DNA of 64,000 bases from Tubulanus polymorphus (Eukaryota; Animalia; Nemertea): contig NC_134026.1 of assembly GCF_964204645.1 (NCBI RefSeq), forward strand, positions 11,927,950 to 11,991,949, read 5' to 3'. Below are positions 1 to 62,516 of the stretch, in pieces (position 1 is the first letter of the stretch; each line of letters opens with the position of its first letter). Both the position numbers and the translations under genes were made by a program. The notes under the pieces are model-generated. The model was given only the letters and a program-made list of their open reading frames with translations. It did not search any database and was not told where the DNA came from.

Positions 1-293
1 AGTCCAACGTCTTCATCATTTATGTTAAGTTTAGATTTTTCAATTAAATCTTCTAATTTAGGTATTTTGTTTAAATTATCTAAATCTTGTTTTACTAAAC
101 CTGGGTCTAAATTTTCAGGATTTAATTGTGATTCTGCATTTTTAATATAATCAGGCATATTTAAATTATTATTATATTCTGGCTCATTACCATCATTAAA
201 ACTTGTTTCACTAAAATCAGGTTGTTGTTCATCAGTTATACCAGGTTCATCAAAAGGATCCATTCCAATATCTTCTCCACCTTCTACATCCAT
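1..293 (-). CDS. Polinton hypothetical acidic protein, N-terminal part (MDVEGGEDIGMDPFDEPG...), runs off window
   Basis: ATG within TATATAAATG at 293; frame open to position 1. Confidence 0.6.
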   Translation of the reverse strand, partial: MDVEGGEDIGMDPFDEPGITDEQQPDFSETSFNDGNEPEYNNNLNMPDYIKNAESQLNPENLDPGLVKQDLDNLNKIPKLEDLIEKSKLNINDEDVG

Positions 294-309
294 TTATATA
301 ATAAAAAAA

Positions 310-1395
310 TTAAAATTTAAAATATAATATTCCTCCTATAACAATTCCTATACAAGTAAAAGCTAATTTAGTATTTTCATGTAATTTATTATGATTATCA
401 GTTTTAATTATATCATGTTGAATATTATCAGTTTTAATATTTTCTGTAGTATTGTAATCTTTTATTTTGGAATCATTATTTAATTTAATATTATTAGTTT
501 TAGTTTCTGTTGATTGAATGTGTTTTTTATTTTTTTCACCTTCCATTAATTTTGGAGCAGTAATAATCTTTTTATTTATATCATTCAATCCAAATGAATT
601 ATTTATTGTTGCAGTTTTAATTAGATTATTATAACCAATTATATTTCCCATCTTTAATACTAAATCATTAGAAATAATAAATAGATTAGGGCCTATACAA
701 TAATTTAATCTAATATGTGATTTATCTAAATAATTTTGATATCTTACAATGTTTTCCGGAATCGATCTATTTTTATCATTATGAATTGAATCTTCAAATA
801 ATACTTTGAATTGTTTCTGCGCATCGAATGAAGTGTTATCATTTCCAATTATTGGGGATCTTGTTTCAACTTGCGCACCTAGAATACATATCAAATAAGT
901 TCTAATAGATTGATTTATTCTTTGTATTCCAGCTTTAGTAAAACCTTCACTATTTTCTAAAATGAAATTAACCCAACCATTATTGTTTTGTTGTTGCATA
1001 TTATTATAATATTTTGGTAATTCATTCCAATTTAGTGTTCTTATATCTGAATTTGTCATTATTTTTCCAAATTCTTTAGTATACAATATTCCTAATCCAC
1101 CCATTGTTCCAATTTTTGCTCTAAAATCTTTATTTGAATTAATATTAAATTCATTACATATTTTATAAAACTTAGAAAAATTAATATCATTATTCAATTC
1201 TTTAAAATATTTTGAACCTGGTAAAGGACATTCTAATTCATCTAATATTAATTTTATTTGAAAATATGTATGAAATCTAAAAAGTGATAACATCAATGGT
1301 AAACTTGGTTTGTTTAAATGATCATTCCAACTAATTCCACATCCTGTTGTTGCACAATAAACAGCAAAATTTAATTGGTTCTGCCAATACTTCAT
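310..1395 (-). CDS. Conserved Polinton hypothetical protein (WQNQLNFAVYCATTGCG family) with C-terminal TM anchor; probably 5'-truncated
   Basis: 361 aa ORF. I recall this motif from invertebrate Polinton-like elements. Hydrophobic C-terminus; no TAAATG at the start; frame continues upstream (QNEAKQWLLKSNM). Confidence 0.65.
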   Translation of the reverse strand: MKYWQNQLNFAVYCATTGCGISWNDHLNKPSLPLMLSLFRFHTYFQIKLILDELECPLPGSKYFKELNNDINFSKFYKICNEFNINSNKDFRAKIGTMGGLGILYTKEFGKIMTNSDIRTLNWNELPKYYNNMQQQNNNGWVNFILENSEGFTKAGIQRINQSIRTYLICILGAQVETRSPIIGNDNTSFDAQKQFKVLFEDSIHNDKNRSIPENIVRYQNYLDKSHIRLNYCIGPNLFIISNDLVLKMGNIIGYNNLIKTATINNSFGLNDINKKIITAPKLMEGEKNKKHIQSTETKTNNIKLNNDSKIKDYNTTENIKTDNIQHDIIKTDNHNKLHENTKLAFTCIGIVIGGILYFKF

Positions 1396-1423
1396 ATTAG
1401 ATTTTAATAACCATTGTTTTGCC

Positions 1424-1711
1424 TCATTTTGAACTTATACCAGTTAAAACACTTGAACTTAATCCTAATACACCAATTGATATAGCTAAAGGTGTTAATG
1501 GACTGAATATTGCTAGAAATGTTATTACAGAACTAATTGTAACCGAACCACTTATAATCAAATAGTATATAATTTTACTTTTTAAATATTTTTTCTTTTT
1601 AACTTTTAAATCATTTTCAAATTCTAATATTTGTTTTTCTAAATATGATTTTAATTTAGTTTTATTTATATCATGAGGAATAATGTCAATATTATCAACT
1701 TTATCTTCCAT
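1424..1711 (-). CDS. Small two-TM membrane protein (possibly 3'-truncated)
   Basis: TAAATG start; two hydrophobic segments. Confidence 0.55.
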   Translation of the reverse strand: MEDKVDNIDIIPHDINKTKLKSYLEKQILEFENDLKVKKKKYLKSKIIYYLIISGSVTISSVITFLAIFSPLTPLAISIGVLGLSSSVLTGISSK

Positions 1712-1730
1712 TTATTTAGAAAAAAAATTA

Positions 1731-2157
1731 CTAATTAGTAAACTTATAAGCAACAAATATAACAATAACTGTTCCACCTAAAATCCAAATTATTTCATAT
1801 TTCTTCTGTTCATTACTTGGGGTATAATAATCTGATATTGTAGGTTTATGTAGATGTAATTTTTCTTTATTGGTTACCGCGTTATATAAACTCTTTGCAT
1901 CATCAACTAATTGAAAATCTCTATGTGAAATCTTCTGATCATATAATTCCTTGTTAATATAATCCATATAGTTTTTTTTGTCGTTTCTCTCTATATTCTT
2001 CTGCTGCTTTATTATATTTCTCTAATGCTAAGTTATGTCTTTTTTGTTCTGTTAATGATCCATTTTTATCAATATGTTTAAATAAATAACCACCACCAGT
2101 AAATGCTAAAGCGTTAACAATTGCCGATCCTATAATAGTCATAACTGCAGAAGCCAT
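1731..2157 (-). pseudogene. Polinton membrane/virion protein (MASAVMTIIGSAIVNALAFTG...PTISDYYTPSNEQ...TM), split by a frameshift in an A-run near 1975
   Basis: ORFs 1954-2157 and 1731-1967 overlap at a poly-A run; only the first has a TAAATG start. Confidence 0.65.
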
Positions 2158-2181
2158 TTATTTAGTAAAATAATTATGTAT

Positions 2182-2403
2182 TTATATGGGAGGAATATAT
2201 TTTTGCTTTTCTAAATAATCAATAGTTAAATTAGATAAAGTAACTGCTAATGTTAATTTTAAAATATCATTGATATCAAATCCATCAACATTAACACTTC
2301 CCATTTTGAATACCTTTTTTAATACCATTGAATAACCAACAGTTCCAACTGATAGTAATGCTCCATTATATAATCCAGTTATTATCCACTTATTATCACT
2401 CAT
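2182..2403 (-). CDS. Small hydrophobic Polinton protein (ends DYLEKQKYIP)
   Basis: 73 aa ORF with TAAATG start. Confidence 0.6.
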   Translation of the reverse strand: MSDNKWIITGLYNGALLSVGTVGYSMVLKKVFKMGSVNVDGFDINDILKLTLAVTLSNLTIDYLEKQKYIPPI

Positions 2404-2410
2404 TTATTTA

Positions 2411-2764
2411 TCAAAAAAAATTACTATCATCAAAATATTTAGTTATCTTAGTGATGATTAATTCAACATTTATTTCATTACTGCTTTTATGATTATCATA
2501 TATTTCGGTTAATATGTTTTTAATATCATCTATGATAAAATCTTCAATTAATTCATAAAATCTTAAAGATACTCTAATTAAATAAGTAATCTTTTCTACA
2601 TTTAAAGTTTCTTTATCTATTGTTGTTTCATACTCAAATGTTGTTTCATTAGAAAATGTAATATTTTTGATATGTGTAATTACATCATTAATGTTAAATT
2701 TCATTTCTTTCTCACGTTTAAAATCAAATCCAAAACATATACTTGGTCCAACAGTTATATTCAT
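2411..2764 (-). CDS. Hypothetical protein
   Basis: 117 aa ORF with TAAATG start. Confidence 0.5.
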   Translation of the reverse strand: MNITVGPSICFGFDFKREKEMKFNINDVITHIKNITFSNETTFEYETTIDKETLNVEKITYLIRVSLRFYELIEDFIIDDIKNILTEIYDNHKSSNEINVELIITKITKYFDDSNFF

Positions 2765-2780
2765 TTATATAGTGAAAAGA

Positions 2781-3538
2781 TTACTCTTTACATCTTATAA
2801 CTAATTCATAAATTACAGGAAAGTTATTCAAATCAATTAAATAACCATTATGATTTCTTATTTCTAATTTAAAATTATTGAAATGTGGAATTCAAGGTTT
2901 AAAATCACATTCAGTTAAATTATAATTTATTTGCGTTCCAAATTGTTTAACATTTTTTAATGGTAAAATATTTAATATACTAGAATTACAAATTGTATCT
3001 TTAGTTGCTTCAAATGTTTTTGTTGGGTCAATTAAATTGCAATAAATATAAAAATGTGTAAAAGGTATTAAGTTTGATCTACCTTCTGCGTATGCTGTAA
3101 CAATATCTGGGTTAATTCCTAACAGTTTACCTAAAGGTTTTCTTACTGTAAATTTAAATTGTTCGTCATTAGCTAACCTAATCTTTATTTTATTAGAACT
3201 ATCACTTTTTAAAATTCTAATACTAAATCCGGAATCACTTCCTAATTTAGCTCGAGCTTTTCTATTAATTTCTTGTGCTAATGTATCTAAATTATATAAT
3301 CCTGGTTTTAAATATAAAAAAACCATTTATTCCTTTTTTTGTAAAAGATTGAAAAAATTAAATGTTCTAGACTTTTATCCGATACATTATAAAAAGAATT
3401 ACATAAACTTATATTTACTAATTTCAAATCAACACAATTCTTAAATTCTCTATCTAATTGAACTATTAAATTATGAGATTTATAATTTGTAAGTTTTCTA
3501 GAATCAACAAATATTCTGTATTCTTTTAATTCTACCAT
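2781..3538 (-). pseudogene. Minor capsid protein (penton-like), one frameshift (~3330) and one in-frame TGA (2892)
   Basis: Motifs IFVDSR..LIVQLDR..LVNISLCNSFYNV and FYIYCNLI..SILNILPL; after the stop, FNNFKLEIRNHNGYLIDLNNFPVIYEL. These are typical of Polinton pentons. Confidence 0.7.
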
Positions 3539-3606
3539 TATTTATAACATGAAAAAATTACCGCTCATCACTAAAAATTAATTTTAATAAAATTTGTCCT
3601 TAATAA

Positions 3607-4918
3607 ATGGATGAGAAGATAGCATGCGAAATTTGTGGTGAACTTCTAAGAAAAAGTAATATGGCTCGACATGAAAAAACATGATGAAAATTATAAACCC
3701 CCTAAACTAAACTGCCCAAAATGTAATAAATTATTCTCAAGAAATTATGTTAAAAAACATTCAGAGAAGTGTAAAATTAATGGCGCAACGGCTAATGTTG
3801 ATAGTAATGAAAGTAATAGTAATTCTGTTGAAGTTGAACCTGAAGGTATTTGGAAAAGACCTTTCTTATTCTATGATAAGGATAATATAAAAGATCATAT
3901 CTGTGAGCCTTGTCAAGTAAAATATAGCCCTGAAAATATAGAAGATTGGGAGAATCATCAATTTCGTAAAGCACATATAGATAAAATTTCTAATAAATTT
4001 GAAAGTGAATTCAACGAAAGAAAAAATAATTTATTAGAAAAAATAAAATATGAGAAAACGTTACCAGATAAAGAAACAGTTGAAAAGTTAGAAAAACAAT
4101 ATAATGAATTAACAAGAAAAACATATTATTGTAAATATTGTAAATTGATTATTACAACAAGTAATTCAAATCTACATAATAGAACAATAAAACATAAAGA
4201 AAACGTAAGAAAATTCCAGGAGCTTAATGAAGATCTATTACCAATAAATTATAAACGAAAATGTCCACAATGTAGTTATGCGACCTTAAGACAAGAAGGT
4301 ACTGTGTTATTTTGTAATGAATGTGGATGGCAAAAGAATTTATTGGGTGAAGAAAAAACTAGAAATTTTCTCATAGATCCAAAATTAAATTATCTAGATG
4401 AAATTTTTAAAATATTTTCTGTAGAAGATCATACACCAGAATATATGCAATGGCTTGAAAAAATGAAAATAATAGAAAATAAAAATGGTGAAATAACTAA
4501 AAAAGATATTATAAAAACAATTATTCCATCAACATTTAACACAAAACAAAAGAAAATGTATCTATATTTATTATTTAACGATTATTATGAAAAACCTAAA
4601 TTAACAGAAGAAGATATGAAAAATATAAAAGAAATATTCAAACAAATATTAATGTATCATTTGGAAAATAGAATAACAGATTCAATAAATTATGAATTCT
4701 TTTTAAATAAGATTGTAAATTATTCAAACATAGATATTATAATTCCATTTGACGAATTAACAAACAAAAAGAAACAAAGAGAGCGAGATGAAATGTGGAA
4801 CAAGATAGAACTTTATTTAAATGAGAAAAATGAAATGGAAGAAGAACCTAAACAATTAAATGAAAATGAAGAAGCCAATAGTGATTTCGAGTATGATGAT
4901 ATTGATTTTATGTTTTAA
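3607..4918 (+). CDS. Multi-zinc-finger protein with C-terminal poxvirus VLTF3 (A2L)-like domain; frameshift near 3670
   Basis: TAAATG start at 3607 (MDEKIACEICGELLRKSNMARH). C2H2 fingers, a CPQC...FCNECG ribbon, and C-terminal SINYEFFLNKIV...KKQRERDEMWNKI resembling VLTF3. Confidence 0.65.
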
Positions 4919-7900
4919 TAACCATAAGGTAATGTTTTTATACCATCATCTGAAATATGCCTTTTATCATCAAATGGATTCAAACTAGTTTTTTCAACTT
5001 CATTAATGTACATCTCATGATCTTCTGATCTTAAACAATTCATTTTGTGTTTCATTACAATTGAGTTATATAAACACTTTATATAATCTTAAAATTCTAT
5101 ATGTTTATCAACCACATGTTTTGTTATTCCTTTTAACTTTTTAGCTTCATGATCTTTTGTTCTATAACTATACATTTTACTTCTTATCCCAACAAATTCA
5201 ATCATTTCATCACCCCCTAATTCATCTTTAAACTTACCAGGAATCTTTTTATTATCATTGCTAAATAGTTCATGATCTTTGGGATAATTGCTAAAAATCA
5301 AAATGATGTTTTAATGTTTTTAGGTCTTTTGTTATGTCATTTGTCTTGATTTTAGTATGTAGGCGTCAGTATTTTTTTGGATTAATGGGAACCCAGAATT
5401 GAATGTTCCATCATCTGTTGATAAATCATAAACATAGTCAGTTGGGTTATATATTTCAAATAAATCTTTAACTTCTTCAGTTAAATCTTTTTCTACATGC
5501 CTTAAATTAAAACAATTTGGTTTAGATTTAATCAACCCAATATTCATATTGAAGCCTAATGAATTACATAATATATTCAATCCTGATATAGCAACTTTTC
5601 CTTTCTGTGCAAAGGTTATCTTTTTATCCTTTGTAAATTTTTTAGTGCCATCTGCGGCATAGAATCCAATGAAGAACCATTTTCTTAAAATATTTTTTGC
5701 ATTTAATACATAATCTGGAACTATCTTTTCTTTTGTTGAAGTATTACTTTTCACTATTGCATGAATATAGAATTCATCATTATATTTTATAGCAAAATCT
5801 TTAGGATTATTTACAAGTATTCTATAAACTGCTGATGATTTCATAACATCCATGATTTTAAATGTTTTATTTGGATAAACTTCTTCACAGAATTTCTTAA
5901 TTCTTTCTAATAATTTTAAGTCTTGATTGCATAAATACCAACAATATTTATTACCCCAAACATAATTATACACACCTGCTGAACCATCACCCATGAAAAA
6001 TCCCTTGATAAAATATTCTTTTTCTTCTAATGTTTTGGGTTCTCCATTATAAATATTATCAATTATTTCATCAAATGACATATGATTCATTCTTTGGAAA
6101 AATCTTTTATGTAATAATTCATCTCCAATTTTATATCAGTTGGTTTTATTTCATCGCCATTTCGTTTAATTAAACTATGATTTTCTGTAACATCTACAAA
6201 CCCTAATTTAGTTCTAACTCTATAGATATTCTTATTTGTTTTATGCCTAATAATATTCTTTAATTTTTTCCATCCATTTCTTGTCCAAACACCCATTAAA
6301 CCATTTATTTGTATTAATTCTTTTTCACCATATGAAATATAACATTCATTTTGTTTTGGAATTATTTCTGAAATTCTTCTTATCAATATTCTATCATTAC
6401 ATTTTAATAATATTGGGGTGTGAGCTGTTACAGAATCAAAATATAATATTTCAATATGCTTTTCCCCAAAAAGTGGTTGTAAAACGTTATAATAAAAATC
6501 ATACATTAATAATTTTGATACTTCTAAAACAGTTGAACCAATAAATATAGGTTTATTAAATTTCATTGACGTTCTTTGTAATTTAACTGCTGTTAAATAA
6601 TCTTCAAATCTTTTATTTCCTAAATGTCTAGGACTTGATTGTAAATGTCTTAATCTTTCAGAATTATTCACTAATTCAATATCATTTCTATTTCTAATAT
6701 TTTCACATGTTTTACCATAAAAACTATTATTCATTAATTTGAAGAAATCTTTTTCAAAATCTGTTTTTGATATTGTTCTCTGTTGAGTATTGAAATCTAT
6801 ATATTTTTCTAACCACTTCGATTGATTAAATTCAATATATCTATGTACTTTCTTTAATTTCATTCCTTGTTTTAGATAAAATTTTTACATTCTATAATGA
6901 ACAATATAATTGTATTTATTATTTTGAGTAAGTATTAATTTTTCTGTAAAAACATGATCTTTCGTTTTTATTTTCTTCTGGTATTCACTTAAATAACTAT
7001 CATCTACAGTTAAATGTTCTGGGCAATAAGGTAAGTTTCTTGTTTTAAACTTTATATTTTCAGGATATTCTAAATCAACTACAAAGAAATAACCAATTGG
7101 TGCTTCATCTTTTAAACTCGCAATTGCGCTTTCCCAATCAGTTTTATCACCATTTTCAACTTCTGTTAATATAAAATTTGTGTATGGTTGAGGTTGCATC
7201 ATTGCCCAACCATATAAATTATTGGCATCAATATATAATAATTTATATTCATCATTTGCTTTAAAATACCTCATAATAATCTCCCATAACACCACTAATT
7301 CCACCTCTAATTGATTTTTCAAATAATAAAACCATATCTGGTTCTTTTAATAAATCTAATTCTACATTTGTATATTTTAAACCACATTGCCAGGTTAAAC
7401 CAGGACTAGAGTAGCAATAACAAGGATCAACATTAAAATGATTCAAATTAACTTCTCTAAATTTTTCAAATATGTCAGCCAATATCATAACATCTGATTT
7501 TTAATATAAATCAACTAATTCGCCATGATTTTTCATCTTAAAATGGTTCCAAATATTTAATGTTTTATTAAACACTTCGTCATTCACATACTCCTCTTTT
7601 AATTGATCATAAAATTGATCTTTTAATAATTCTGTTACATTAAAATCATTGTGTGTTTTATAAAATGAATAAGGAATTGCGCCTTTATATCTCAATAATT
7701 TAAAATCTTGGTCATTTGGATAATAATATCGAGTTATTATAAAATCATTATCAACTAAACTTTTTGCTAAATTATCTAATGAACTTGAAATTGAAATGAA
7801 ATATAATTTTCCGATGTTTTACCTAATAGTTTAAAATCATATTTTCTTACATTTACACCATTCATAGCATTATATTCTTCTATTTCTTGATTAATTGTAC

Positions 7901-9947
7901 CCAATTTCTTTGATAATTGTTTTATAAATAGATGGGTATCATAACCCGATAAATTATGAAATAATATTGGTACGAAATTAACTTTCTTAGCTTGTAAATT
8001 GCAATCTTCATGAGCAGCTCCACGATATTTTCAATTTAAATGATCATGATCTCTAACTTTTTTTATCAAATGAATAAAAACGTTTTTCACAATAACAACA
8101 ATGAGTTGCATAATTAAAATCAATTTCATCTTCTTTTGTCATAACTATTCTTTTATTTTTGTTTAATAATTTTGCAAAATCACTTTCTAATTCAATCATT
8201 TTATCACAAAAATCATTAACTACATTTTCACCTCTAAAAGAAATATATTGACTTTCATATAATTCAGGATAATTTGATTTTATATAAATTCCATAAGCAG
8301 CAGCTCTTTGATGAACTTTTTTAATTGTATTTATAATTGGTGGGTCTTGAATTATGTCTTCATTTAATTCATGTCCTTTGTCCATTGATTTTAATAATTG
8401 CTTTTTGTTATATATTTCTTTTCTATCTTGATCAGTTAATTCTTTATTCAACGATTCAAAATCCCCATAAATTACAAATGGAACAATATTCTTAAATTTA
8501 TGATTAGTAAATTTCAATTTATAATCTTTTTCTGTTGGCATTATTAATTTACAAAAATCTTTATTATCACTAAATTCTTTATGTTTTAATAATGTATTCT
8601 CAGCCATAAATTTAGATAAACATTTTCTACATAGATAAATTTTACGATGATGATCACTTTCTGTTGTTCTAAAGAATAAATCAGTTTGTTTTAACCACAT
8701 ATAATGTTCATTTTCATCTTTTTTGTAATATAACAAATCTATAGCATTTTCATCATCATAATATTCTGTTAAATATAAAGCTTCCAATGTATAATCTTTA
8801 ATATTTTCACCTTTTGTTTTTGGTAATTGCATTAATTCGAATACATTTATTTTCAAATTATTAACTTTTTCTATTTTAGGAATCATTTTTATAGTTACTG
8901 GATATTGATCAATTTTATATAATGTTTCATATTTCCGGTAATCTGTTATTCTACAAACATTTTCCCGTGTTGGATGTAAGCAACTAATAATTGACCATAG
9001 AAAACATTTATTATCTTCATTTTGAATATTTATTACTGCTTTTGTTGTAAATGGTAATTTAATATAAGATGATGCTTTAATATCCTTTTCTGTTGTAAAG
9101 TTTGAATCATTTTTAAACATTTTATTACGTTTTGATGTTTTATTTCTTTTTGTATTATAAACATTTAAATCTAAATATATAATTTCATTCAATGTTAAGC
9201 CAGAACCCTCAAAATATCTTCAATATGACGTTTAAATTCATTTAATATTTTTTCTTACTTCTCTTTTATTTGTGTTTTTGAAATTATTTCTTCAGAGAGT
9301 GTTTGAATATTATAATTCTTTTCTTCTTCTGACTTTATAAAACTTACTTTCCCAGAGATACTAATTTTTGGATATTCAACATCTGTTATCAAATCTAGTA
9401 TTTTTTCTATTATTTCATTAAATTTACTATAATCCTCTATTGTTGTTCCTTTAAAAAATCTAAATATAATAGCTGCAGGACCAATTTTACTATGTAATGT
9501 TTCTAAGATTTCAATTGTATCTTTTATTTCTAGTGAATCAATATAATTTCTAACATTTTCCATGTAAGGTTTATTTGAAATGGATTTAGTTTTTGAAGTT
9601 GGTTTTTTTACTTCTTGAGGTTTATCATCAAAATAATCTTTTCCTAAAACATCATTACTCAAATTTTGGTGGTGTTTTTGTCATTCGAGATGTCTATTAT
9701 AATTCCTTTTTACTATAAATTCATTACAAACTTCACATTTTATTTCATCCACATTCATATTTTCTAATCTTTCTTTTCTTTCATTGGAATTTTCTGGAGT
9801 TTCAAAATCTATTACATTTTTTATATGATTTGCAGTTTTTTCATGTCGTGTTGTATGAGATGTATCGATGTATTTTTTACAATATTGGCAATAATATTGA
9901 TTTTTATTAACATTATTGTTTTCTGGCTGGTGTTCATTCTCCCCCAT
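4915..9947 (-). pseudogene. polB: Protein-primed family B DNA polymerase (zinc fingers, OTU-like NEDNKCFLWS, endonuclease VII-like insert, exonuclease, polymerase), several frameshifts and stops, intein-containing
   Basis: Motifs YGDFES, DHDH..YRGAAH..CNL, FHNLSGYD, YSSPGLTW, YIDANNLYGWAM, KLMNNSFYGKT, YFD/TD, GKFKDE, GIRSKMYS, NPFDDKR..TLPYGY*. Confidence 0.93.
5371..6434 (-). mobile_element. Intein with LAGLIDADG homing endonuclease (~355 aa) in PolB motif C
   Basis: Block A SVTAHTPILLK directly after YFD; block B VTENH; LAGLIDADG blocks FIKGFFMGDG and FFIGFYAADG; block F YVYDLSTDDGTF; terminal KN followed by extein T-D. One 1-nt loss in an A-run near 6130. Confidence 0.9.
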
Positions 9948-10032
9948 TTATTAGGAAAAAAAATTACTTGTGGTGATGAGTGGTGTCTCGCCCTCTCGCC
10001 CTCTGATCTGAAACCCCACTTTTACAATTACT
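9944..10032 (-). repeat. Polinton terminal repeat including the polB promoter
   Basis: Near-identical to 61948-62035; first ~45 nt also match 60596-60641. Confidence 0.85.
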
Positions 10033-10600
10033 GATAAACAAATCATTTTCACGTATGAAAACAAAATTTGTAAGACTTTGGTTAAAAACAATCAATCTAA
10101 GCCTTTGGACTGCGGAGTTTACAAAATTATTTGTTTTGGCTGTGATAAAATTTACTTTGGAGAAACTGGTCGTGATTTAAAAACTCGAATTTCGGAACAC
10201 AAAAAGGATATAATAAATCAAAAACCGTAGCCAATCACGTTTGGAACACTGGGCATCGTTTTAATTTTGATAAAGCCGAAATTATTTATACTTCCAGCAA
10301 TTACACTAAACGCCACATAGTTGAGTCTGCCCTAATTACTCGTCACTCATATATATGTACCAATTTAAATAATGGCTTTTCTCCGCATAATTCCCTTCTT
10401 TCTAAGTATATTTCTTCATGCCTTGCCAAACACTAATTATTTACTCACTCACCAATTTACTCAATTAACCTGTCCTCCTCTGTATATATACCCCCCTTTT
10501 TAATCTTAATCTCACACCTGACGATGATCTCTAGGGTGAGATTGAAACGTCGTGTCTTTTATATATTTTTGATTGAATAAATAAATTCTGGTTTTTAAAT
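10033..10600 (+). mobile_element. Penelope-like retroelement 3' fragment (GIY-YIG endonuclease plus pLTR)
   Basis: Translates GVYKIICFGCDKIYFGETGRDLKTRISEHKKDI...NHVWNTGH..IVESALI..NLNNG; followed by a hammerhead and AATAAA. Confidence 0.85.
10514..10555 (+). ncRNA. Minimal type I hammerhead ribozyme
   Basis: ACAC-CTGACGA-T-GATCTC(loop)GAGATT-GAAACGTC-GTGT. Confidence 0.75.
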
Positions 10601-11374
10601 TATTTTAATCTGTAAATAGTGGGATTTTATCTTAACCCTTACTTTGATCGATAGTGCCCCTTCCCTGTTTTTTTTTTTGTTTGGTTTAAACATGTCTAAC
10701 AACTAAGCTCCCGAATTCATCACTTTTTCAGAAATTCTTTCAAATATTGAAATAGGGCGATTGACCTCGTTATTTATTCGATTGGTAGATTTCGTTTGAT
10801 TTTATGATTTGGGTCCAACATAATGAGTTTTCCGGTTTGCTCGGCTACCCGTACTGGCGGGGTAGTCTAGATAGGCAAATGAAAGCTCCGGTTTGCTGAA
10901 CTACCCCTCTTTGCGGGGATGCGGTATGATGTTTGATCTGACAGTTTCAAGTGGTTAATGGGTGTTTCAAGTGCTTACAACGATGCTTATTACTTAATGT
11001 GGTACATGGTGGTTTAAAAAAAGATTTCATAATGATACGCTCAAAGTATAGGCCTACCGCGTGGGCTTCGTAGAAAGACCACTGTCTGTGGCCTTCCCAA
11101 ATTTTAATTGTTCTGTCCGATTTGGTTTCGTCCAATTGAAAGACTGCCTTTTCCAGTTAGGGCATTTTTGGATCACATCACTCAGGAAATGACTTACGCT
11201 TTTGGGCCCTTTCGTCGGTCCCACGTGTTTCATTTGAGCTGTAGACCACATGGTGACACCATGATGGTCAGAAACTGACCAATTGAGATATTCCCGAGTC
11301 TGAACACCTGACTGCGAATTTCGGAAATTTATCAAGTCATGTTTGTTTTCAAACTACCGAGGTATCATCATTGC

Positions 11375-11652
11375 AAATTCATAAATTGACCATCACTGAC
11401 CACCACTGACCAATTCAAACTTCTCGAATATGAGTTCGATATACCGCGTTATGGTGTCAAACTAGAAAGGATTCGCCATAAATATTGAGAATTCATAAAT
11501 TTACCATCACTGACCACCACTGACCAATTCAAACTTCTCGAATATGAGAACGATGTACCGCGTTATGGTGTCAAACTAGAAAGGATTCGCCATTGAAAAT
11601 TCATGAATTGACCATCACTGACCACCACTGACCAAGTGAAACTTCTCGAATA
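11375..11652. repeat. ~115 bp tandem repeats with a triple (AC)TGACCA motif
   Basis: TGACCATCACTGACCACCACTGACCAA repeated 3 times; mirrored at ~27500-27870. Confidence 0.8.
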
Positions 11653-13374
11653 TCGTCGAATTCGAAAGTGGTTGTCGTCGTATTGTTATTTCTAGAGACC
11701 AGCAGTATGTTTCGCTACTGTTTCTGAATGGCGTTGACATGATGGAAATATATTACTCCTAAATAGGTTACACATCTGGATCACAGCACCTCACTTGCCG
11801 CAGTGCGTAATTTTGACTGCATAGTAATGCTAATACATAAACTTTTTTACTACTTGACTCAAAGCTTGACTCGAATCATCTGAACAGTACTGCGTTTGAA
11901 AACGAATAGAAAATGTTTGCGAGAAGCACCTGCAAATAAGTTATGATAAGATTAAATCTATGGTTAATCGATGCTTAAAAAAACAATTAAATCAGAGGCA
12001 AGATGACTAACAACCGTCTTTCAACCAATCAGCGCGATGCCAATTAATTAAATCATTAAACGCATTAGGCTCCTAATATTTGTAATCATTTGTCGTTCTT
12101 TAAACTTGGCCACTTTTGTTTCAGAAAACCGCGTACTAGACAAGTGGTCACCAAGGCATTAAAAAAGTTTTGAAAATTCGATGGTAACGATTTGTTTCGT
12201 TAATATTTCAAGTTTTTTTAACTCTTGTACAGAATTCACTATATGAAAAGTGTTCATAGGAATTGAAATTCGGTGTGATATCAGTCACCTGTTACCCCTT
12301 TTTCATTGTCAGTTCTTTATTGCACTATCATGCGCTCTTCTAAAATAGAAAAGAACATGTGTGTTTCGTTATAAACAAGGTTAAATTCCAAACGCACATG
12401 AAATATCACACAATATACACATCTAGCATTTTCTCTAACTAGGCCCTTTCCAAATGGCAATTGTTTAGTTTTTTAACGGCCGACATTCAGAAGCTCCTAA
12501 AAACCAGTGGTAGCGCTTGAGATTTTCAGTGTAGGTCACATCTCACATCGACTCGGCTCGCAGTCGGTTCGTTAAATGGGAACACATCTGGTTGACACTA
12601 GTTTCACAGTTGACGAAATCAGAAAACTTTTTTCAAATGCCTTTGATAACATCTTAAACATAGTATTCTTCTTAATTACATTTCGTTGATTCCATAGATA
12701 TGTTTTTATGAAAATTGCTCCAGTTATAACGGATTCAAACATACATGTGAAATCATTATTTTCAAAATATTAAATTTTCTCCGCTTTTGAAGAAATTCTG
12801 ACACAATATCATCTCCACTCGACACATGATTTTACTTCGGCGCCTTTAAGGGAGTGTCCCTTAAAGTTGAGTTCTTACTTAGTCAAACAAGGAGATATGC
12901 CTGATTCCTTTTTAAAATTTAGATTTCGACATATATCATCAAATTACTAGAAAGGGACAGCAGCGTTCGGTCATCCACGAAAAATACCTAAAATGCAGTC
13001 CTAGGGTTATGGAAAAACAGGACACGAAACATACAGAAAAATCCTTTGTTTGGTTGACTGAAATTATTATTGAACTCTTAAATAGCGACATTCAGAGAAA
13101 CAAAAACATAAGAATATATATAATCTCGCCCACCCGTTAAAAAACATAACGTAATGAGGCCATGTGTCATCTTTAATTGAAATCACATTATATTCATTCT
13201 CATGCGAGGATGGGTCCCCAAATTCATAGGATAAGGAGAATAATGGTTTGAATGATGAATACAACTGATAAAGCGCCAATTTCACTGATTCTTGCATATA
13301 AATGCTCAAAGGCGCTTTACAGTAATCGAGTAAACAGGTGCGTTTTTAGGAGTCTTTTGAATTTGAATTCAAAT

Positions 13375-13801
13375 CGGGTGTTCATGACGACTATAGGCGC
13401 TTTTACGAAACTGAATCTTTGTAAATCGATTTAAGTTTCACGTTTACGGCACGCGGTTTAGTGAATCCGATTTGGTAAATCAACTCGTTTATGGACGCGG
13501 TTTAGTAAATTGATTTATTAAATCGACTAACTTGCTCGGCGAGCAAGTTAGTGGCGATTTAGTCAGTGAAATCCAACATGGCGTCATCTTCGACCGCGGG
13601 CTAAAGACATCTATTGCAGACCATCATCTATCAATAATTCGGTCACCATTGACGCCCATTTTCTTTCGAATCGCGACCTTTAGATTGATAAATTGATTCG
13701 ACTCATTTACGAAAAACGATTCGATTTACTAATCCTTACGTTTTCAAACATCGAATCGGATTTAGCTAAACCGAATCAGATTCAATTTCGTAAAAGCGCC
13801 T
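13375..13801. mobile_element. MITE present only in the left arm
   Basis: TIR AGGCGCTTTTACGAAA/TTTCGTAAAAGCGCCT; absent at the matching site near 24550. Confidence 0.8.
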
Positions 13802-16800
13802 TATAATTGAGCATTCTAGGGCTGGAGCAAGAAACGTGTGGGATCGTCCGCCAAGGTATCGCTAAGGAGTCAGTCCGTGGTGGCTTTTGAAAGCGACGAC
13901 CGCATATGAATGCATTGATTGAATGACATCTCAAAAGTCAGATTATATAAAATTAAACATGATATACGGATAGGTTCTTCCAATTTGGCCTATACTGGTA
14001 GGCCTAAAAATGAAATGACCCAATATGTGATATAAATGTTCAATCAAAAAGTAGAAAGTGAATCCGTAATTCAGTATGGTAGGCCTATTGTTACAACATC
14101 AAACACTCAAATTCAATCCTTTGTTAAATTGGAAGCCAGTGTAGATGAGCAAGTATCGTGGTCCCTGATTTTAGTTATCGTAATAATTCAAGCCACGCGA
14201 TTTTGAACTGTTCAACAAGTTGGAGTTTGTGTAAAGATGAATGAGTTTGAAATGGAGTGGACTTCAGATATTACTGTTCGCATGCCTATGTCTATTACTT
14301 AATCTTTTTACTTATCATAGAAAATTGTGGTAAAATATTTTACTCGACGGTTGGTTTTAGATTGTATCTCTCCAAGCCAGAGGTAATCACGGATATCGGA
14401 CTACAAAAAATTCCTTGTGTAAAGCTCAACTTTGTAAATTCCTGGAAAAGCTCGCCTCGGATATTTCAATAATGATTAAACATTAATTTTCCCAACGAAA
14501 AACCTAAACAACCAATGTACGCTTGCTTTAAGTTTACCAATGCACTATCGTTGCTTTTTCTAGCTATTTGTACTGTTTGCCGCAAAAAGATTGCATCCTC
14601 TATTACAGGATTTAAGGATACAACTCTAAAACCAGTTAGTTTAAATTAACCATTATACAATATGATACATGACCAAATACACTGTTAATATGAAAAAGAT
14701 CCAATATGCACACATTTCAAATCTCAAACCAAGTTTTATCATTAGAAAATAACGACACGACGTTCGATCGTTCACTAGAGATCATGTTTTTGAATTTGTA
14801 CACAGTGAATTTTCGTATCGTATTATGGTATTATCAATTCTCCGCATTTGAGGGTGACTATTCTACGAATACAAAGTTATTTTTAGCAATGAAGTTTTAA
14901 TTGTCATTTTAAATGTTAACTATCCACTGGTATGTAAACTTACTAACTTTTGGCAACTGACCTCAAATCGTGGAATGGGCTCAGGTAGCCTGCTGATCCA
15001 CTCTTTATTAATACTACTAAAGAAATATTCAGTATAAGACGTAAAAAGTATATTAAAGTACTATTTATCTTTATATCGCAATAATTTGTGTACGTATGAT
15101 TGAAAAACGATATTCTATGGAGTCTCATGTTACGTACTTATGATTATTGTGTATAAGATCAATAATTAGCAACCTTCCACGGATACGAAGCGGCCTAAGT
15201 TTACATCCTACCATAATTTTCTCTAAACTCTCAGCATTATATCAAGATCGGTCTTAGAAAATATATGAAGGACGTGTTCACAGGTTAACGAGGCCAAAAA
15301 TCTTCCTCAAAATTTCAAATTTTTACGAGCAAAGATAATATACTTCATGCTTTTGGTGCAGAAATAATGGATGTCCACAAATTGCAAATTGTGTTTTCAA
15401 AGTAAACGATCCGAGTGTGGAATTGTTTCGAATTCAGGGTTCTCCCATTTACTCTCCGGTATTCTACAATGTTTCAATAAGATACGTAAGTCGCACTTTT
15501 GTTGTGATACAGCTTTCTCTATTGGTCAGCGTTGTGATCACTTAAAATTACCCATAAGTTTGAATTCTCACTGAACTACTACATCCCTTATAACGAATAT
15601 ATATTTCATATGAGGCGATTAACTTTGATGATCTGTGGTCAGTGGACAGCAGTTACGAAACATTCAAAACTACTACATAATCTTCCATCTATTCATTATT
15701 CATATATATGATATGATATGATATGATATAATATCTCCTTTAGTGTTCAGTTTAAACGTCTTGAACGCAAAAGTTTGACAAGTTTCGCATAATGGTACCG
15801 ATACGCACGTTCACACTAGTGAAATGTGCACGTTACAGGTTCAAATGCGCACGTTACAATTACAAATCGAAACGTTGTTCGTTCAAAACCCGATGTGAAA
15901 ATCTTTTGCATTTAGTGGGAAATTTCAGAGTTAGCTCGCTTCCTACAATAAAAATTGGACAAGACTTTTAAATCGACACATTTAATAAGAGTAGTACTGA
16001 CGAAGGATTCAGGCAATACCCCGTGTTATTTCTAAAAACATTTAACCGGTAATTAGACAGTACTGGTGTAGCTTGTACAGGTAAAAGAGTTATTATATTT
16101 ACGTTCAGACCGAATGAAATTATTTGATACGAGACACGACTAAGTTGTGTCCGAAACAGATAAATATAGCTATGTGGTCAGTATTGGTCAAGATTTGGTC
16201 ACTTGAATAGTTGTTAGATGAAAGCCCACACTATTTCTAATTATTTGACACCAAACACGACTGTGTTGCTTCTAGAATAAACAAATTACTTTAAGGTCAG
16301 TATTGGTAAAATATTGGTCAGTTAAATAGTTGTTAGATCATAGCCCGCACCGTATCTAGTAGCTCGACGCCCAAACACGATTTTATTGCTTTACTAAACA
16401 TATAAATTACATATGGTGGGTTCTAGTTAGTGGTAACTGGTCAGTACTGGTCAAGCATTGGTCAGTTAAACAATTTTTAGTTTAATGTCCACATTATATC
16501 TAGTTATTTGACACCAAATAACTTAATTGTTTGCAAAACAGATAATTTACTATATAGCCAGTACTGGTCATGCATTGGTCAGTTGATAAACCAAGGTCCA
16601 CGCCACGAGTTATTTGATACTAAACATTATTGTGTCGTTTCGGAAAATTTATCTGTTGGGCAACTTGTGGTCAGCCCTGGTTCGTTAGTTCTTATTTTGC
16701 GGGCATTTTATCTCGAACCACCGAAAGACTGAATTACTAATCAATTCAACAGATCATTAATTAATTAATGGAAATGAAGATCAGTGTTAACTAAGTCCTT

Positions 16801-16849
16801 AGTCTGAATAAAATGTATGTGGTATTATATGGGTGCTATGGTGCTGTAC

Positions 16850-17115
16850 ACATCTTCACCCGTCAAGGGATTCGAACCCACTACGCTAAAGCTGTTCCCC
16901 GAACCCCTTGACCTCACGAGTCGTTGGAGTCGTTACTAGCCGACCAGAATCCGGTCGTACCAATCACAGCGCTTGTAACAAACCGTAAGTAGACTTCTGT
17001 TGGGTTTCCCGTTAAATTGACCAATCAGCGAACGTTTTACCGAACAAGGAAGTATTTCGCAAATCGATATATGACGTCACGCGCAACAGCTCCAGTAATG
17101 AAATCACGCTTCGTG
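16850..17115 (-). repeat. Dispersed repeat with a Pol III B-box-like GGTTCGAATCC
   Basis: Inverted copy at ~38335-38550. Confidence 0.6.
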
Positions 17116-17286
17116 AGGTCAGGGGGCTCATTATGAGAATGCCGGTTTGCTAGCGTATCTATTTAACACCCGTATTGCTCGGGTTAGTTTTACTATCAAC
17201 GGGTGGCGCTGTATGTAAATTTCACATACTTCGTTGAGTACGGACGTGTTTTCGGCGCGCTCTGCAAATTCTATTCAGTGTCAACC

Positions 17287-18105
17287 ATGGCGAACAACAG
17301 CAGGCTGAGTACATCACCGCCGAGAAAGCAGCAGAAAATAGGGAAAACAACTCAACGTATTCAGATATCCGAAAAGCAATTAAAACAGATTATCGAACAG
17401 AAACCCGCGACATCGGCAACATCGTCACGTGTCGGTGGAAGAGCTGACGACGAGTTATCGACTAAACTTGATACGATTATTGCGCAACTCACTAAACTTG
17501 ACGTGTTACAAAAGGATATGTGCGAGGTTAAGCAATCACTCGAATATTGCCATGAAGACGTCAGGCAGTTGAAACAGGAGAATGTCATGCTTAAAAACAA
17601 AGTAAGGGACTTAGAACAGTTAGTTGCGGATCAAGAAGCGATTGTGCGATCGGATCACGAGCTCTTGCTAGACCAGCAGTGGCGAAGTATGAGGGATAAT
17701 CTCATATTTTACGGAATCGAGGAGAGCGATAACGAGGATACGGAGAAATTGATCAAGGACTTTTGCGTGAATGACTTGAAATTGGCGAAGGAGAAGGTCG
17801 ATTCGATGGAATTCGCGAGATCGCATCGAATGGGCAGCAAAAAGAAACAGCTAAAAAAACCTCGTGCTATCGTTGCGAAATTTGAGCACTATAAAGATCG
17901 CAAATTTGTGCGCTCCGCCGCGAAAAACCTTGCCGGATCATCGTTGGGGCTTAGCGAGCAAGTCCCGGAGGAATGGGCAGCCCGCAGGCGCGAGAAACTT
18001 CCAGAGTTGCGGGCTGCGAAAGCCAGTGGTAAGCGTGCGTTTTTCGTCCGCGACAAACTAGTTATTCGTGATCCGTATGATCGTTCAGCTATGGACAGCG
18101 CCTAG
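17287..18105 (+). CDS. LINE ORF1 (coiled coil plus RRM-like)
   Basis: SMRDNLIFYGIEE, FARSHRMG, PRAIVAKFEHYKD motifs. Confidence 0.8.
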   Translation: MANNSRLSTSPPRKQQKIGKTTQRIQISEKQLKQIIEQKPATSATSSRVGGRADDELSTKLDTIIAQLTKLDVLQKDMCEVKQSLEYCHEDVRQLKQENVMLKNKVRDLEQLVADQEAIVRSDHELLLDQQWRSMRDNLIFYGIEESDNEDTEKLIKDFCVNDLKLAKEKVDSMEFARSHRMGSKKKQLKKPRAIVAKFEHYKDRKFVRSAAKNLAGSSLGLSEQVPEEWAARRREKLPELRAAKASGKRAFFVRDKLVIRDPYDRSAMDSA

Positions 18106-18147
18106 GAAGTCGCGGAGGGCTTCTGCTTAGAGTTCGTAGATCGCGCG

Positions 18148-21100
18148 GTGCTCCAGTCGAGAAAGCGGTGTTTTGTTGTAGAGTTTGTTAATAGTATTCA
18201 CATATATCAAGATGTAAATAGCGGAAGTGAAAGTTTAGATTCATGTGTTCCTGTAAATAGCCAAAGATTTAATATTACGTCAGATAGCGAAACTTGCAAT
18301 TCTTGTGATGAGCAAAATGTAATTATTGATGATCCTGTTGGTATGAATTTATCTACTCTTAATGTGTGTGGTTTGACAAGCAAACTTGACATCCCGGAAT
18401 TTTCAGATTTTATCTGCAGTAACGATATTGTATGTTTGACCGAAACTCATCTAGATGATGTAGATGGTGATCTAAGCAGTAGTTTGCCCGCTTCTTATGT
18501 AGGTCATTTTAAAAATAGGAAACGGTTTTCGAAGAAAGGCTCTGGTGGCGTTGGCATCATTTACAAGAAACTTCTACAATCTAAAATAAGACCAATTTCG
18601 ACTGACAGTCAATATGTATCTTGGTACCTATTAGATAAGTCTTTATTTAATTACGACAAACATATACTTTTAGGTGTGGTTTATATTCCCCCCGAAAATA
18701 GTCGCTACTATTCGGAAGGAGCAATTAGTGAAATCGAGTTAGAACTATTACAATTAAGAGTCGAACACGATATCAATGTATTAATTACTGGAGATTTTAA
18801 TGCCCACACTTCTTGTTTGCCTGACTTATTAGAACCTGATATTCATATCATAGACGAACATAATTTACACTCTATTGTTGACTCGCAGCTGTCATCTAAT
18901 CTAGGTGTCCCCACTACTAGAAACAACCAAGACAAAAGAACCAATAATACCGGATATCAATTAACTGACTTGTGTAACAATCATTCACTAATCATTCTTA
19001 ATGGCAGGTGTGGCAGTGACCAGTCTGGTAATTATACCTTTAAGGGCACTAGTGTTATCGATTATTGTTTGAGTGATGTTGAGTTGTTTAATTATTTTTC
19101 TAAATTTGAAATAATGCCTTTCGATCCTTTATTATCCGATGGACACAATGCTATCTCGCTCTGTTTGTATGTGGGCATTAGGGACACTGTTGTTGATAAC
19201 GAAAATAATGGGCGGACGGAAGAGATCCCGTCAGTGAGATGGGACAAAGAAAAATCAGATCAATTCTTTGCTACCGTTGAATCAAAATTGTGTAACGCTA
19301 ACCTGAACGATTTACTGTTGAACGGGCTTCAGAATGCAGATACGCAAACAGCTGACTGTATAAATGAACTTACTGATAAATTTGTATCGTCATTATTAGA
19401 AAGTGCCGATGAGTGTAATCTTATGCAGCATAGGAAAAGCAGTAGCCGTAAAAAGCAAGCGTATAATAGGTGGTTTAGTCGGGATTGTAGAATAGCGCAA
19501 AAAGAGTATAATTATAGGCGAAATAGATATAGGAGCTGTCCGAATTCCGCAAACTTAGAATTTTTAAAGAACTCGTCTAGGAAATATAAAAAAACTATTC
19601 AAGAATCTAAAAGAAGACAGAAAGAAAACTTTATCAAAGAATTAAGAGAATGTGAAATTAGTAACCCTAAGAAATACTGGTCTATGCTGAACTCAGCGAC
19701 AGTAACAACAGTTGACAAAGATAATATCGATATCGATACTTTCCTTGAACACTTCATGAGACTGAATGATTTGAATATTAACGTATACGAGCAGACTGAT
19801 ACCATTACTGAAACTCAAGATGATGACCCACCTGATTATGACAACTCCATGTTAAACTGTGAAATTTCTACTGAAGAAATAGGCAAAGCTATATCTTCAT
19901 TGAAAAACAACAAGGCATCTGGTATAGATGGAATTATCAATGAAATGCTGAAAGTTAATGAGTATCCATGTATAACAAGGATATTACAAAATATTTTTAA
20001 CTTAGTACTTAAAACTGGCCATGTACCAGAGATGTGGTCCGTTGGCGTCATTAAACCCATTTTTAAAAACAAAGGAGACCCCGCCAATCCAGATAATTAT
20101 AGAGGCATCACACTAGTTAGCTGTTTAGGCAAATTATTTACAAGTATATTGAATCAAAGACTGTCTTCATTCCTAGATATTAACAACATTATCAGTGAAG
20201 CTCAGGCTGGTTTTAGATCTAAATACTCAACTATTGTACTGTAAACTACAGTTACACTTAGATACATTATTTGAATATTGCACAGACAACGGCCTCACTG
20301 TAAATGTCGATAAGACAAAAATATTAGTTTTTGCGCGAAGTAAATCTAGAATTAAGCAAATTCCAAAATTTATGTTTGGCAACCAAGAATTGGAGATAGT
20401 TGAAGATTATTTGTACCTCGGAGTTAAATTCAACTGGAACGGTAGTTTTGTTAAAGCAAGAAAATATCTTTACGATAAAGCTATGAGAGCTATGTTTTCT
20501 ATTATCCAAAAGGGTAGGCGCCTGAAACTCCCAATCGACGTAATGTTTAAATTATTCGATATGTGCGTTGCCCCTGTTGCCATGTATGGTTGCGAGGTAT
20601 GGGGATACGAAAATTTAGACTTATTAGAAAATATTCATTGTCTTTTTTGCAAGATTTTAATGAAGGTAACAAAGTATTCTCATAATTTACCGGTGTTAGC
20701 AGAGTTAGGGCGTTATCCTTTGTTCATTGAAGTAAAGCGTAGAATGATTAATTTTTGGTGTAAAACTGTATCTGGCAAACAATCTAAGCTTAATGCAATA
20801 CTCTATCGAATTTCCTGTAATCTGTATCTAAATGACAAACATACTAGTCCTTGGCTTTTCAGTATTAAACAAACCTTTGATGACTGCGGTCTGTCCTATG
20901 TATGGATGCAACAATATATGCAAAGTTCTAGGGCGTTCTCAAAATATGTAAGACAAATTCTACGTGACCAGTATGCACAAGAGACTATTTTCAAAATCAA
21001 TAATAATCCGTTATATATTAATTTCAGGGAATACAAAAACGATATTAAATTTGAGAATTATATTAACCAACTAGGTGATAATTGTGTTTTTAGTTTTTTT

Positions 21101-21361
21101 CAGTTTAGAATAGGATCCCACCTATTACCTGTACATAGATTTTCTAATCTCCATATACCTAGAAACGAAAGAATGTGCCCAATCTGCAATGTTTTTGGGG
21201 ATGAATTACATTTTCTCTTTGATTGTAAGATTCTTACCGAACTTCGCAATACCATTCCGAATTTAGAAACATTTAGAAACTTTGATATATTAAAAACTCC
21301 AAATTTTCAATTAGCACAATTTATAAAAGATGGTTTAGATGTATATAGATCCCTCCTGTAG
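18148..21361 (+). pseudogene. LINE ORF2 (AP endonuclease, RT, Cys motif), RT core deleted at ~20240
   Basis: CLTETH, TGDFNA, SVIDY, SDGH, NYRGITL. QAGFR then jumps to LQLHLDTL..NVDKTK with no QG or YADD motif. C-terminal CPIC..DELHFLFDC. Confidence 0.85.
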
Positions 21362-24233: not shown

Positions 24234-24477
24234 ACGATTGGTAGAACACTATATCCGTGTTGACGCGATGAGGAGAGAATCCCACAATGATAATAAATAG
24301 TCCGAAAAAGAAACTTCGAGATAGTAGTTTATTTCAACGTTTCGACTATATCCTAATAGTCATCTTCAGGAATAATTCCTGAAGATGACTATTAGGATAT
24401 AGTCGAAACGTTGAAATAAACTACTATCTCGAAGTTTCTTTTTCGGACTTTTTATTATCATTGTGGGATTCTCTCCT
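24234..24477. mobile_element. Penelope pLTR-only palindromic insertion with two opposed hammerheads
   Basis: ~105 bp near-perfect inverted arms; duplication CTCCTTATTATTTC at 24220-24233 and 24478-24491; same family as 51617-52428. Confidence 0.85.
24376..24415 (+). ncRNA. Minimal hammerhead ribozyme (mirror copy at ~24333-24372 on the minus strand)
   Basis: TTC-CTGAAGA-T-GACTAT(loop)ATAGTC-GAAACGTT-GAA. Confidence 0.75.
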
Positions 24478-26005: not shown

Positions 26006-26768
26006 CGGTACTCGAAAAACGCCTAATGAAATACACCATAACGCCTAATTCCTAGAAAATGACCTAATTTCGTAATTGGACCATCTACTGAGACTCACAA
26101 TCCAACTCATCAACGGAACAGTTTGAAAATACATGTGTTTTACGCTTCACGAAACGAGACTACTACTCTTATAAACTTCATTATAGGATGATGATAGAAT
26201 GTCCGCCGTGCAAGCAATCAATTACATAACGCCAGAGAAGTGTAAACTGAAACAGTTTACACTTCTATGATAACGCGAAAACAGACGCCGCGGTTATAAA
26301 CCGGCTTTCTTGAATTTTGAAACCGGAATGCATAAATATGGTACAACCTACGCTCGTAGGTACAACGCACACAAAGACTGATAAAATAGCCTTTCTCAAA
26401 ATTATCCTCCAAAACTGTTCACAACCACGCTAATGTGAACCTACCGAACCAATGAGAGACTAAATAATGTCCAGCCCCTGAACTTCCTTGAACAAAAAAA
26501 AAATAAACTATATGTTCCATAAAATGATGTCATTTATTATCATAATACTCTGTCTTAATATGAAATAATAACACAGATAAGCCTGTGTAACCAAAGACAG
26601 TAGAAACGAAGATGGAACAGGCGGCGCTCCACGCACTCCGACGTGAACTATGTAGCGTTGCGTACATAGTTCACGTAGGGATTTAGGTCAATTTCTTGGA
26701 TGTTACTTGAATTAGGCGTTATGCGTTTTCCGATTCGGTGTTTTTCATTAGGCGTTTTTCGAATACCG
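26006..26768. mobile_element. Mutator-like non-autonomous element
   Basis: TIR CGGTACTCGAAAAACGCCTAATGAAA; 10 bp duplication GTAAAAACGG on both sides. Confidence 0.8.
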
Positions 26769-60803: not shown

Positions 60804-61145
60804 TTAATCCATTTTTTTTATTGTCAATTTTGGAATTTCAGAAGTATTTTCATTTTTGATAGCAGTTGTTTCAGAATTATTAATATCATGAATTTAATTT
60901 GATTTTTTATACCAATTACACCCAATCAAAATGAATACAATTACAAATCCAACGGTAAAATATAGATATTTATCAAATATTCTATTATTAGAAGGAGTAG
61001 AAATAACAATATTTTCACCATTTTTATTACTTATTTTTTCTTTTACAGCTTTTTTATATTCTTGTGATTTAATTCCTAATTGCCGAGACCATTCAATTTG
61101 TTTCGGACTTCTCGGTTTTTTCTTCACTTCTTCCACCTTGTTCAT
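60804..61145 (-). pseudogene. TM protein, copy A (premature end at 60894)
   Basis: Paralog of 63246-63599; TAAATG start. Confidence 0.6.
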
Positions 61146-62359: not shown

Positions 62360-62516
62360 ATTTAAAAAAAATAAATTAATAAAAATAATGAATATCTAGA
62401 ATCCGAAATGACTTATCTGGACAATTTAATTGCTCCACATAGATAGACAAAAGTAGTGAGATATTCAATTATTTTTTTTCATACTCATCACCACAAGTAA
62501 TTTTTTTCCCTAATAA

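Follow-up and report, generated by a model that had tools for sequence, protein, structure and literature searches.

A poxvirus-late-like candidate promoter motif at the gene starts of a decayed Maverick/Polinton in the nemertean Tubulanus polymorphus

Whether animal Mavericks/Polintons are nuclear transposons, autonomous viruses or satellites is debated, and nearly all of them are without a known helper. The question of what transcribes such an element is raised by a 64,000-nucleotide stretch of the Tubulanus polymorphus genome (contig NC_134026.1, positions 11,927,950 to 11,991,949, forward strand; hereafter the window), which holds two AT-rich fragments of one decayed, multicopy Maverick/Polinton family (1-10020 and 60600-64000). 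The genes of both fragments start at a bipartite motif, a T-run followed at fixed distance by TAAATG. This motif is real, precise and lineage-specific, both of its parts and their spacing match the published consensus of vaccinia late promoters, as the original prediction had claimed, and the Polinton genes are probably read by a large DNA virus of pox-like kind that co-infects the host and supplies its RNA polymerase and late factors.

All 13 start positions named in the original prediction were recovered and TAAAT is present at every one, in 12 cases as TAAATG, on the minus strand at 293, 1711, 2157, 2403, 2764, 9947, 61145, 61685 and 63599 and on the plus strand at 3607, 62033 and 62517. 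The exception, at 3538 on the minus strand, reads TAAATAATG, that is TAAAT-A-ATG, as had been reported. The upstream T-run stood in part: AATTTTTT lies upstream of 8 of the 13 starts, but the spacer is fixed at ~8 nt rather than variable, TTT being found exactly 9-11 nt before TAAAT at 10 starts, with ATT or TAT at the remaining three. Among the other ATGs of both element regions only 30 of 545 are preceded by TAA, against 12 TAAATG among the 13 listed starts (Fisher 8e-14), a comparison that rests on ~10 independent sites, as a single promoter block has been copied to 9947, 62033 and 62517, and 63599 duplicates 61145 in tandem. Ten of the starts align with genes in related loci (that at 293 just weakly, and 63599 as the copy of 61145), whilst those at 9947 and 61685 are predicted starts of broken genes. 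Half of the motif evidence lies in the second fragment (60600-64000), beyond the coordinates of the original prediction. The candidate promoter motifs (T-run, 8-nt spacer, TAAATG, unless given otherwise) are as follows.

291-309, minus strand: motif of the gene starting at 293
1709-1727, minus strand: motif of the gene at 1711, a 3'-truncated small membrane protein
2155-2173, minus strand: motif with ATT core variant, split small gene at 2157
2401-2419, minus strand: motif of the gene 2182-2403
2762-2780, minus strand: motif of the gene 2411-2764
3536-3557, minus strand: motif in the form TAAAT-A-ATG, broken gene 2787-3538, homologous to 565-1329 of the closest related locus (L002) and which we take to be minor-capsid-like
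3591-3609, plus strand: motif of the VLTF3-like gene, which is head-to-head with the gene at 3538
9945-9963, minus strand: motif of the first open reading frame (ORF) of the PolB region, ~45 nt from a terminus-like repeat
61143-61161, minus strand: motif with weak TAT core, gene at 61145
61683-61701, minus strand: motif of the broken gene at 61685
62017-62035, plus strand: motif of the gene 62033-62359, block as at 9947
62501-62519, plus strand: motif of the broken gene 62517-63209, block as at 9947
63597-63615, minus strand: motif of the gene at 63599, the duplicate of 61145

The broader statement that nearly every Polinton gene starts at the motif holds for the 13 listed starts but not for the gene at 310-1434, whose start is lost in the window copy. 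A further TAAATG, at 3326, is present but opens just an internal piece of a broken gene, and the element's other long ORFs come from the downstream parts of broken genes. The copied block, ~40 nt long and ending in TAAATG, precedes three unrelated ORFs (9945-9985, 61995-62035 and 62480-62519), and two of the three blocks adjoin a terminus-like repeat, in the manner of a portable promoter cassette.

In vaccinia virus, late promoters carry TAAAT, typically followed by G, overlapping the start codon, together with a T conserved at the 10th nucleotide upstream of TAAAT (-13) and weaker Ts around it, whilst intermediate promoters are without that conserved T (PMC11980589, in its accessible sections); the same bipartite late layout is given in the part of PMC5294985 that was available. 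The Polinton motif is alike in each respect, with TAAAT(G/A) overlapping the start at 13 of 13 window starts, a T core centred on about the 10th nucleotide upstream (9th-11th in the Polinton logo) and no room for a 5' untranslated region. It differs in its setting, a ~15-20 kb integrating element in which no RNA polymerase was seen, and in preceding every gene class, including replication and integration genes, as a signal of presumed activity. We infer that this bipartite signal is a promoter.

Enrichment over shuffled sequence, a check suggested in the original prediction, was weak for the hexamer and strong for the bipartite forms, which exceeded all 300 shuffles. TAAATG alone occurs 31 times in 1-9990 against 22.5 expected, a count reached by 14 of 300 shuffles, because the DNA is 76% AT. 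The form T6-N4-10-TAAATG was seen four times against 0.48 expected (0/300 shuffles), and WWTTT-N8-TAAATG has 11 matches in the whole window against 1.64 expected (0/100 shuffles), eight of them listed starts. AATTTT-N7-8-TAAATG, in which the spacer is too short, has no match in the window. When a profile was built from 79 starts of distant relatives, excluding the clade to which the window belongs, it ranked the 12 TAAATG starts of the window above 30 other TAAATG of the element (p 3e-6), its top score being a match in host DNA. A depletion of T5NT in coding strands (22 vs. 38) was discarded, as the antisense strand shows the same.

To place the motif in its lineage we took the 356 metagenome loci that have a homologue of the 310-1434 gene and used the best 80, counting as a start the first ATG in every ORF of 70 aa or more. 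TAAATG occurs at 129 of 450 such starts and at 261 of 11934 other ATGs, and its distribution by locus is nearly all-or-none: 15/16 starts in L002, 12/13 in L041, 9/9 in L035 and 8/8 in L062, against 0/16 in L006, 0/15 in L022, 0/13 in L027 and 0/17 in L052, the GC-rich relatives ranging from 0/12 to 0/17. AT content is higher in the TAAATG-type loci, yet the motif is present at loci of 38-44% GC (L062, as above; L012, 6/6; L010, 3/4) and largely missing at loci of 25-31% GC (L007, 1/4; L008, 0/4; L011, 0/2). In a quick maximum-likelihood tree, whose search was unfinished and whose support is from SH-aLRT alone, a single clade of 35 rows (support 100) takes in every locus where most genes have the motif, along with five motif-less loci, two of them sisters of the window's group.

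For the upstream part we picked 24 loci from the motif-bearing clades, dropping three near-identical loci and leaving out L067 and L074. The share of TAAATG starts in this set (104/120) is circular by choice of loci, the upstream test is not: at least two Ts at -14 to -12 are found at 94 of the 104 real starts and at 41 of 134 non-start TAAATG. Across these 104 starts T peaks at -14 to -12 (88/75/75%) and G and C are absent at -14 and -13; T at -13 was counted at 79 of 105 starts. Most of the exceptions to TAAATG are frameshift fragments or spurious frames. At two starts, 3538 in the window and 960 in L004, the ATG is displaced and the T-run stays in register with TAAAT, as expected of a transcription initiator rather than a translation context. 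Head-to-head genes 14-15 nt apart in L070, L080, L019 and L041 use one bidirectional signal, in which the reverse-strand TAAATG provides the T core of the other gene.

Other promoter-like signals were seen in the motif-less relatives. Five close relatives (L005, L006, L007, L008 and L011) have TAAATG at 1 of 28 starts, with TATA at most 14 nt from the ATG at 16 of 28 starts vs. 73 of 846 other ATGs; a T-run often precedes the TATA. These TATA starts resemble the late initiator TA(+1)TA of African swine fever virus (ASFV), as described in the available part of PMC7163114, which suggests that promoter type tracks the helper. In L006, one of the five, there are also a gene like VLTF3 (PF04947, E 6e-4) and one for Bcl-2. 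In the GC-rich loci L013-L077 (15 counted) a third such signal, TTGAA, lies at most 60 nt upstream at 49 of 140 starts vs. 296 of 3778 other ATGs, with its maximum at -40 to -30.

The assignment of the element as a decayed Maverick/Polinton follows from its PolB, its homology to the genes of L002, multicopy reads and broken genes. An animal host agrees with the range recorded for the family (10.64898/2026.06.19.733378). Its parts other than the motifs are the following.

1-10020, strand not assigned: right part of the decayed Maverick/Polinton, recognised by relatives' homologous genes, a GC drop and multicopy reads, the left end lying beyond the window
60600-64000, strand not assigned: second, rearranged fragment of the same Polinton family, with a tandemly duplicated two-gene unit
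310-1434, minus strand: conserved Polinton gene (~440 aa in relatives), which in the window copy has lost its promoter and 5' end by deletion
3607-4918, plus strand: gene for a zinc-finger and VLTF3-like protein (vaccinia A2-type late transcription factor), frame broken near 3670
4915-9947, minus strand: protein-primed DNA polymerase B gene in many fragments, matching the L036 PolB (E down to 2e-42)
5371-6434, minus strand: intein with LAGLIDADG-like domain inside PolB, frame broken, boundaries read from sequence
9975-10020, minus strand: terminus-like block (AGAG-repeat), also at 60605-60640 and 61955-61995

GC content is ~24% in 1-10020 vs. ~37% in the flank. Host-species reads over the element are deep and mostly 90-99% identical, from which we take the family to be multicopy in the host. 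L002 shares genes with the window at up to 88% identity and additionally encodes a major capsid protein (MCP), an rve integrase, an A32 ATPase and a deoxynucleoside kinase (10340-10981, PF01712, E 2e-31), the last also behind the motif; rve integrase, A32 ATPase and MCP were not found in the window, where the element runs past the edge. The protein-primed PolB that marks Mavericks/Polintons is present in broken form, the window fragments matching the L036 PolB, which in turn matches PF03175. Homologues of the 310-1434 gene are 439-442 aa long (75-81% identity), and 418 reads break off at 1426, the deletion point of the window copy. The AGAG block occurs three times in the window, the element's opposite end lying outside.

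The proposed intein was supported (TIGR01445, 26.1 bits, cut-off 24.5; PF14528, E 4.5e-6), the intein with its homing-endonuclease-like domain had no match among the 80 related loci, and the term 'intein' is absent from the searchable text of two Polinton papers. The HNH label given to the gene at 62517-63209 found no Pfam or NCBIfam support. Both had been taken as signs of a satellite; the intein is indeed present, but neither discriminates a helper-dependent from a nuclear lifestyle. Directly adjoining the element end is a GIY-YIG fragment at 10012-10560, presumably Penelope-like, and a long interspersed nuclear element (LINE)-type element with endonuclease and reverse-transcriptase fragments (17287-21361) sits within long interrupted inverted repeats (~10800-28400).

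The VLTF3-like gene, also part of the original prediction, is supported by language-model features and by predicted fold. Its VLTF3-like domain lies at 4238-4825, and residues 190-385 fall among VLTF3 (PF04947) clusters in the ESM Atlas (score 0.95, 27 of 30 hits). An AlphaFold2 (AF2) model from four sequences had a mean confidence (pLDDT) of 81, the single-sequence fold being unusable (pLDDT 43), and a Foldseek search against predicted viral structures placed cowpox and entomopoxvirus VLTF3 first (E 2e-6 to 3e-5), with seven matches at E up to 0.001 and VLTF3 matches spanning many virus families. A zinc ribbon and a helical VLTF3 domain are thus indicated by predicted fold and features, whilst the Pfam profile search gave the gene no match, PF04947 included. 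Word-based homologue searches with the VLTF3 region found no match (one covered long proteins only), a HMMER library search found three relatives, and sequence and fold searches of the PDB returned no VLTF3.

The window and its relatives thus show the motif, its fixed spacing, its conservation across the lineage and a predicted VLTF3 fold. No RNA polymerase was found among the ORFs of the window or the scanned ORFs of its relatives, a set that included no complete TAAATG-type element. If a pox-like helper virus reads the motif, transcription would start on the As of TAAAT and yield leaderless or poly(A)-leader mRNAs, and an integrated copy would stay silent until helper infection, as for mavirus. 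Early genes would be missing from the element, which could then start only with a helper, because the polymerase-region, integrase and VLTF3 genes themselves stand behind the late-type signal; its own VLTF3 may then reinforce or divert the helper's late complex. The opposition drawn in the original prediction, a satellite rather than a transposon, was too sharp: with an rve integrase in the family and many copies in the host, the element is integrated and likely helper-activated.

Several points weigh against a pox-like helper. Transcription by a helper is something we infer. Scanning viral contigs for the motif turned up no helper genome, and scans of viral contigs with the 374-aa gene, an MCP alignment, a VLTF3 alignment and PolB found no relative. 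The one RNA run searched yielded one contig, located outside the element, and is counted neither for nor against. Nine viral-contig loci, with one motif match each, were rejected as phage-like and without a TAAATG-led gene set. The motif is short and AT-rich, 3 of the 11 WWTTT-N8-TAAATG matches lie in host DNA ahead of no real ORF, and in this decayed copy the motif may be a relic. The top rank of poxvirus proteins does not prove a poxvirus donor, because identity to the poxvirus VLTF3 matches is just 14-24% and VLTF3 is conserved across Nucleocytoviricota and was already reported in polintoviruses (PMC11131425, accessible part); the TATA-type relative L006 also has VLTF3, and it was not detected in the 12-kb TAAATG-type contigs L041 and L042, whose completeness is not established. 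Coral polintoviruses are moreover expressed with no helper reported and no promoter type given, in the accessible text of PMC11131425.

Of the other explanations the one that survives best, though we consider it unlikely, is that the signal serves a viral-type RNA polymerase whose owner is not a poxvirus, such as another nucleocytovirus with the same initiator, or a linear element of the cytoplasm that has this initiator and encodes a polymerase itself. To our knowledge promoters have not been mapped in most large DNA viruses of invertebrates, and the spread of VLTF3 matches over many virus families would suit such a reader. Yeast linear elements also make pox-like mRNAs with poly(A) leaders (PMC6831550, as far as available). 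Amongst the families covered in the accessible literature, however, poxviruses are the only ones described with TAAAT(G/A) as late initiator and a T core upstream of it, ASFV using TATA and Cafeteria roenbergensis virus (CroV) TCTA.

Somewhat less likely still is a nuclear, autonomous element that encodes a VLTF3-like factor and with it steers the host's RNA polymerase II to the T-run and TAAAT. The element does encode a VLTF3-like protein and integration takes place in the nucleus, but the VLTF3 gene itself lies behind the motif, leaving nothing for its first expression, and the signal overlaps the ATG, with no space for the usual TATA-to-start distance of 25-30 nt. The lack of a detected VLTF3 in L041 and L042 also speaks against it, as does the frequency of AATAAA, which is not avoided in coding strands (138 seen vs. 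135 expected), although this counts for little without a nuclear element as positive control.

It is very improbable that TAAATG is no promoter and instead reflects the context of translation initiation, or arises from AT richness, from stops coupled to starts or from a poly(A) signal that overlaps it: A-rich start contexts are common in AT-rich genomes, the TAAATG-type loci are comparatively AT-rich, AATAAA lies near 37 of 105 starts and a Kozak-like G is at +4 in 64% of starts, but position -3, usually favouring a purine, is always T, the fixed T core 10 nt further upstream moves with TAAAT when the ATG shifts, presence of the motif departs from GC content in both directions, stop-start coupling is found at just 5 of 47 tandem starts, and a poly(A) overlap is opposed by a free base at -4 and by 42 of 105 starts being divergent.

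Transcription by a pox-like helper has its closest precedent in protist virophages. Mavirus promoters resemble the late motif of CroV and integrated mavirus is silent without CroV (10.1101/068312, part seen), and mavirus, like Sputnik and Gezel-14T, resembles the window element in combining a small element with protein-primed PolB and integrase with promoters that copy a large-virus motif (10.1101/068312; 10.1101/2022.07.28.501842, both in part). These systems differ in their protist hosts, mimivirus-type helpers, motifs (TCTA, AAAATTGA) and experimentally shown dependence, whilst the window element is of Maverick/Polinton type with a poxvirus-type motif and a merely predicted helper. Polinton-like viruses (PLVs) also occur in entomopoxvirus occlusion bodies and have been proposed as hyperparasites of animal poxviruses (Barth et al. 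2024, PMC11296320, accessible part); compared by description only, they differ in their divergent capsids, their occlusion bodies and an rve integrase undetected in PolB-bearing members, and the words 'promoter', 'motif' and 'TAAAT' do not occur in the main text of that paper. Animal Mavericks/Polintons ('adintoviruses', Polintoviricetes) are alike in protein-primed PolB, in the rve integrase, A32 ATPase and double-jelly-roll capsid seen in L002, and in being multicopy, and the coral polintoviruses are alike in carrying VLTF3 (PMC11131425, in part).

Promoter mimicry by protist virophages and PLVs, entomopoxvirus-associated PLVs and VLTF3 in polintoviruses are therefore already known, as far as the available parts of these sources go. 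A poxvirus-late promoter in animal Polintons was not reported in the literature that our searches covered, subscription papers and supplements being outside their scope; 'promoter' has no match in the searchable text of PMC8502044, PMC11131425, 10.64898/2026.06.19.733378 and 10.64898/2026.10.13.758929, and term searches that included the accessible text of PMC10328495 and 10.1101/2023.08.22.554363 found no such promoter in Polintons.

More tentatively than for the window element itself, and with slightly less than even confidence, we propose that animal Mavericks/Polintons of one large clade live as endogenous virophages on large DNA viruses of the cytoplasm. Lineages with T-run and TAAATG would parasitise poxvirus-like viruses and their sisters with T-run and TATA asfarvirus-like viruses, so that promoter type would record the helper, and lineages would have switched helpers in the course of evolution. 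A strict poxvirus-late promoter at every gene offers a cheap and direct test of Polinton lifestyle, and lineage-specific promoter types a route to pair integrated elements with their helpers from sequence alone. The motif points to poxvirus-like viruses in hosts without recorded ones and, if the proposal is true, would predict undiscovered poxviruses in invertebrates, against which the integrated elements may have an inherited antiviral role like that of mavirus.

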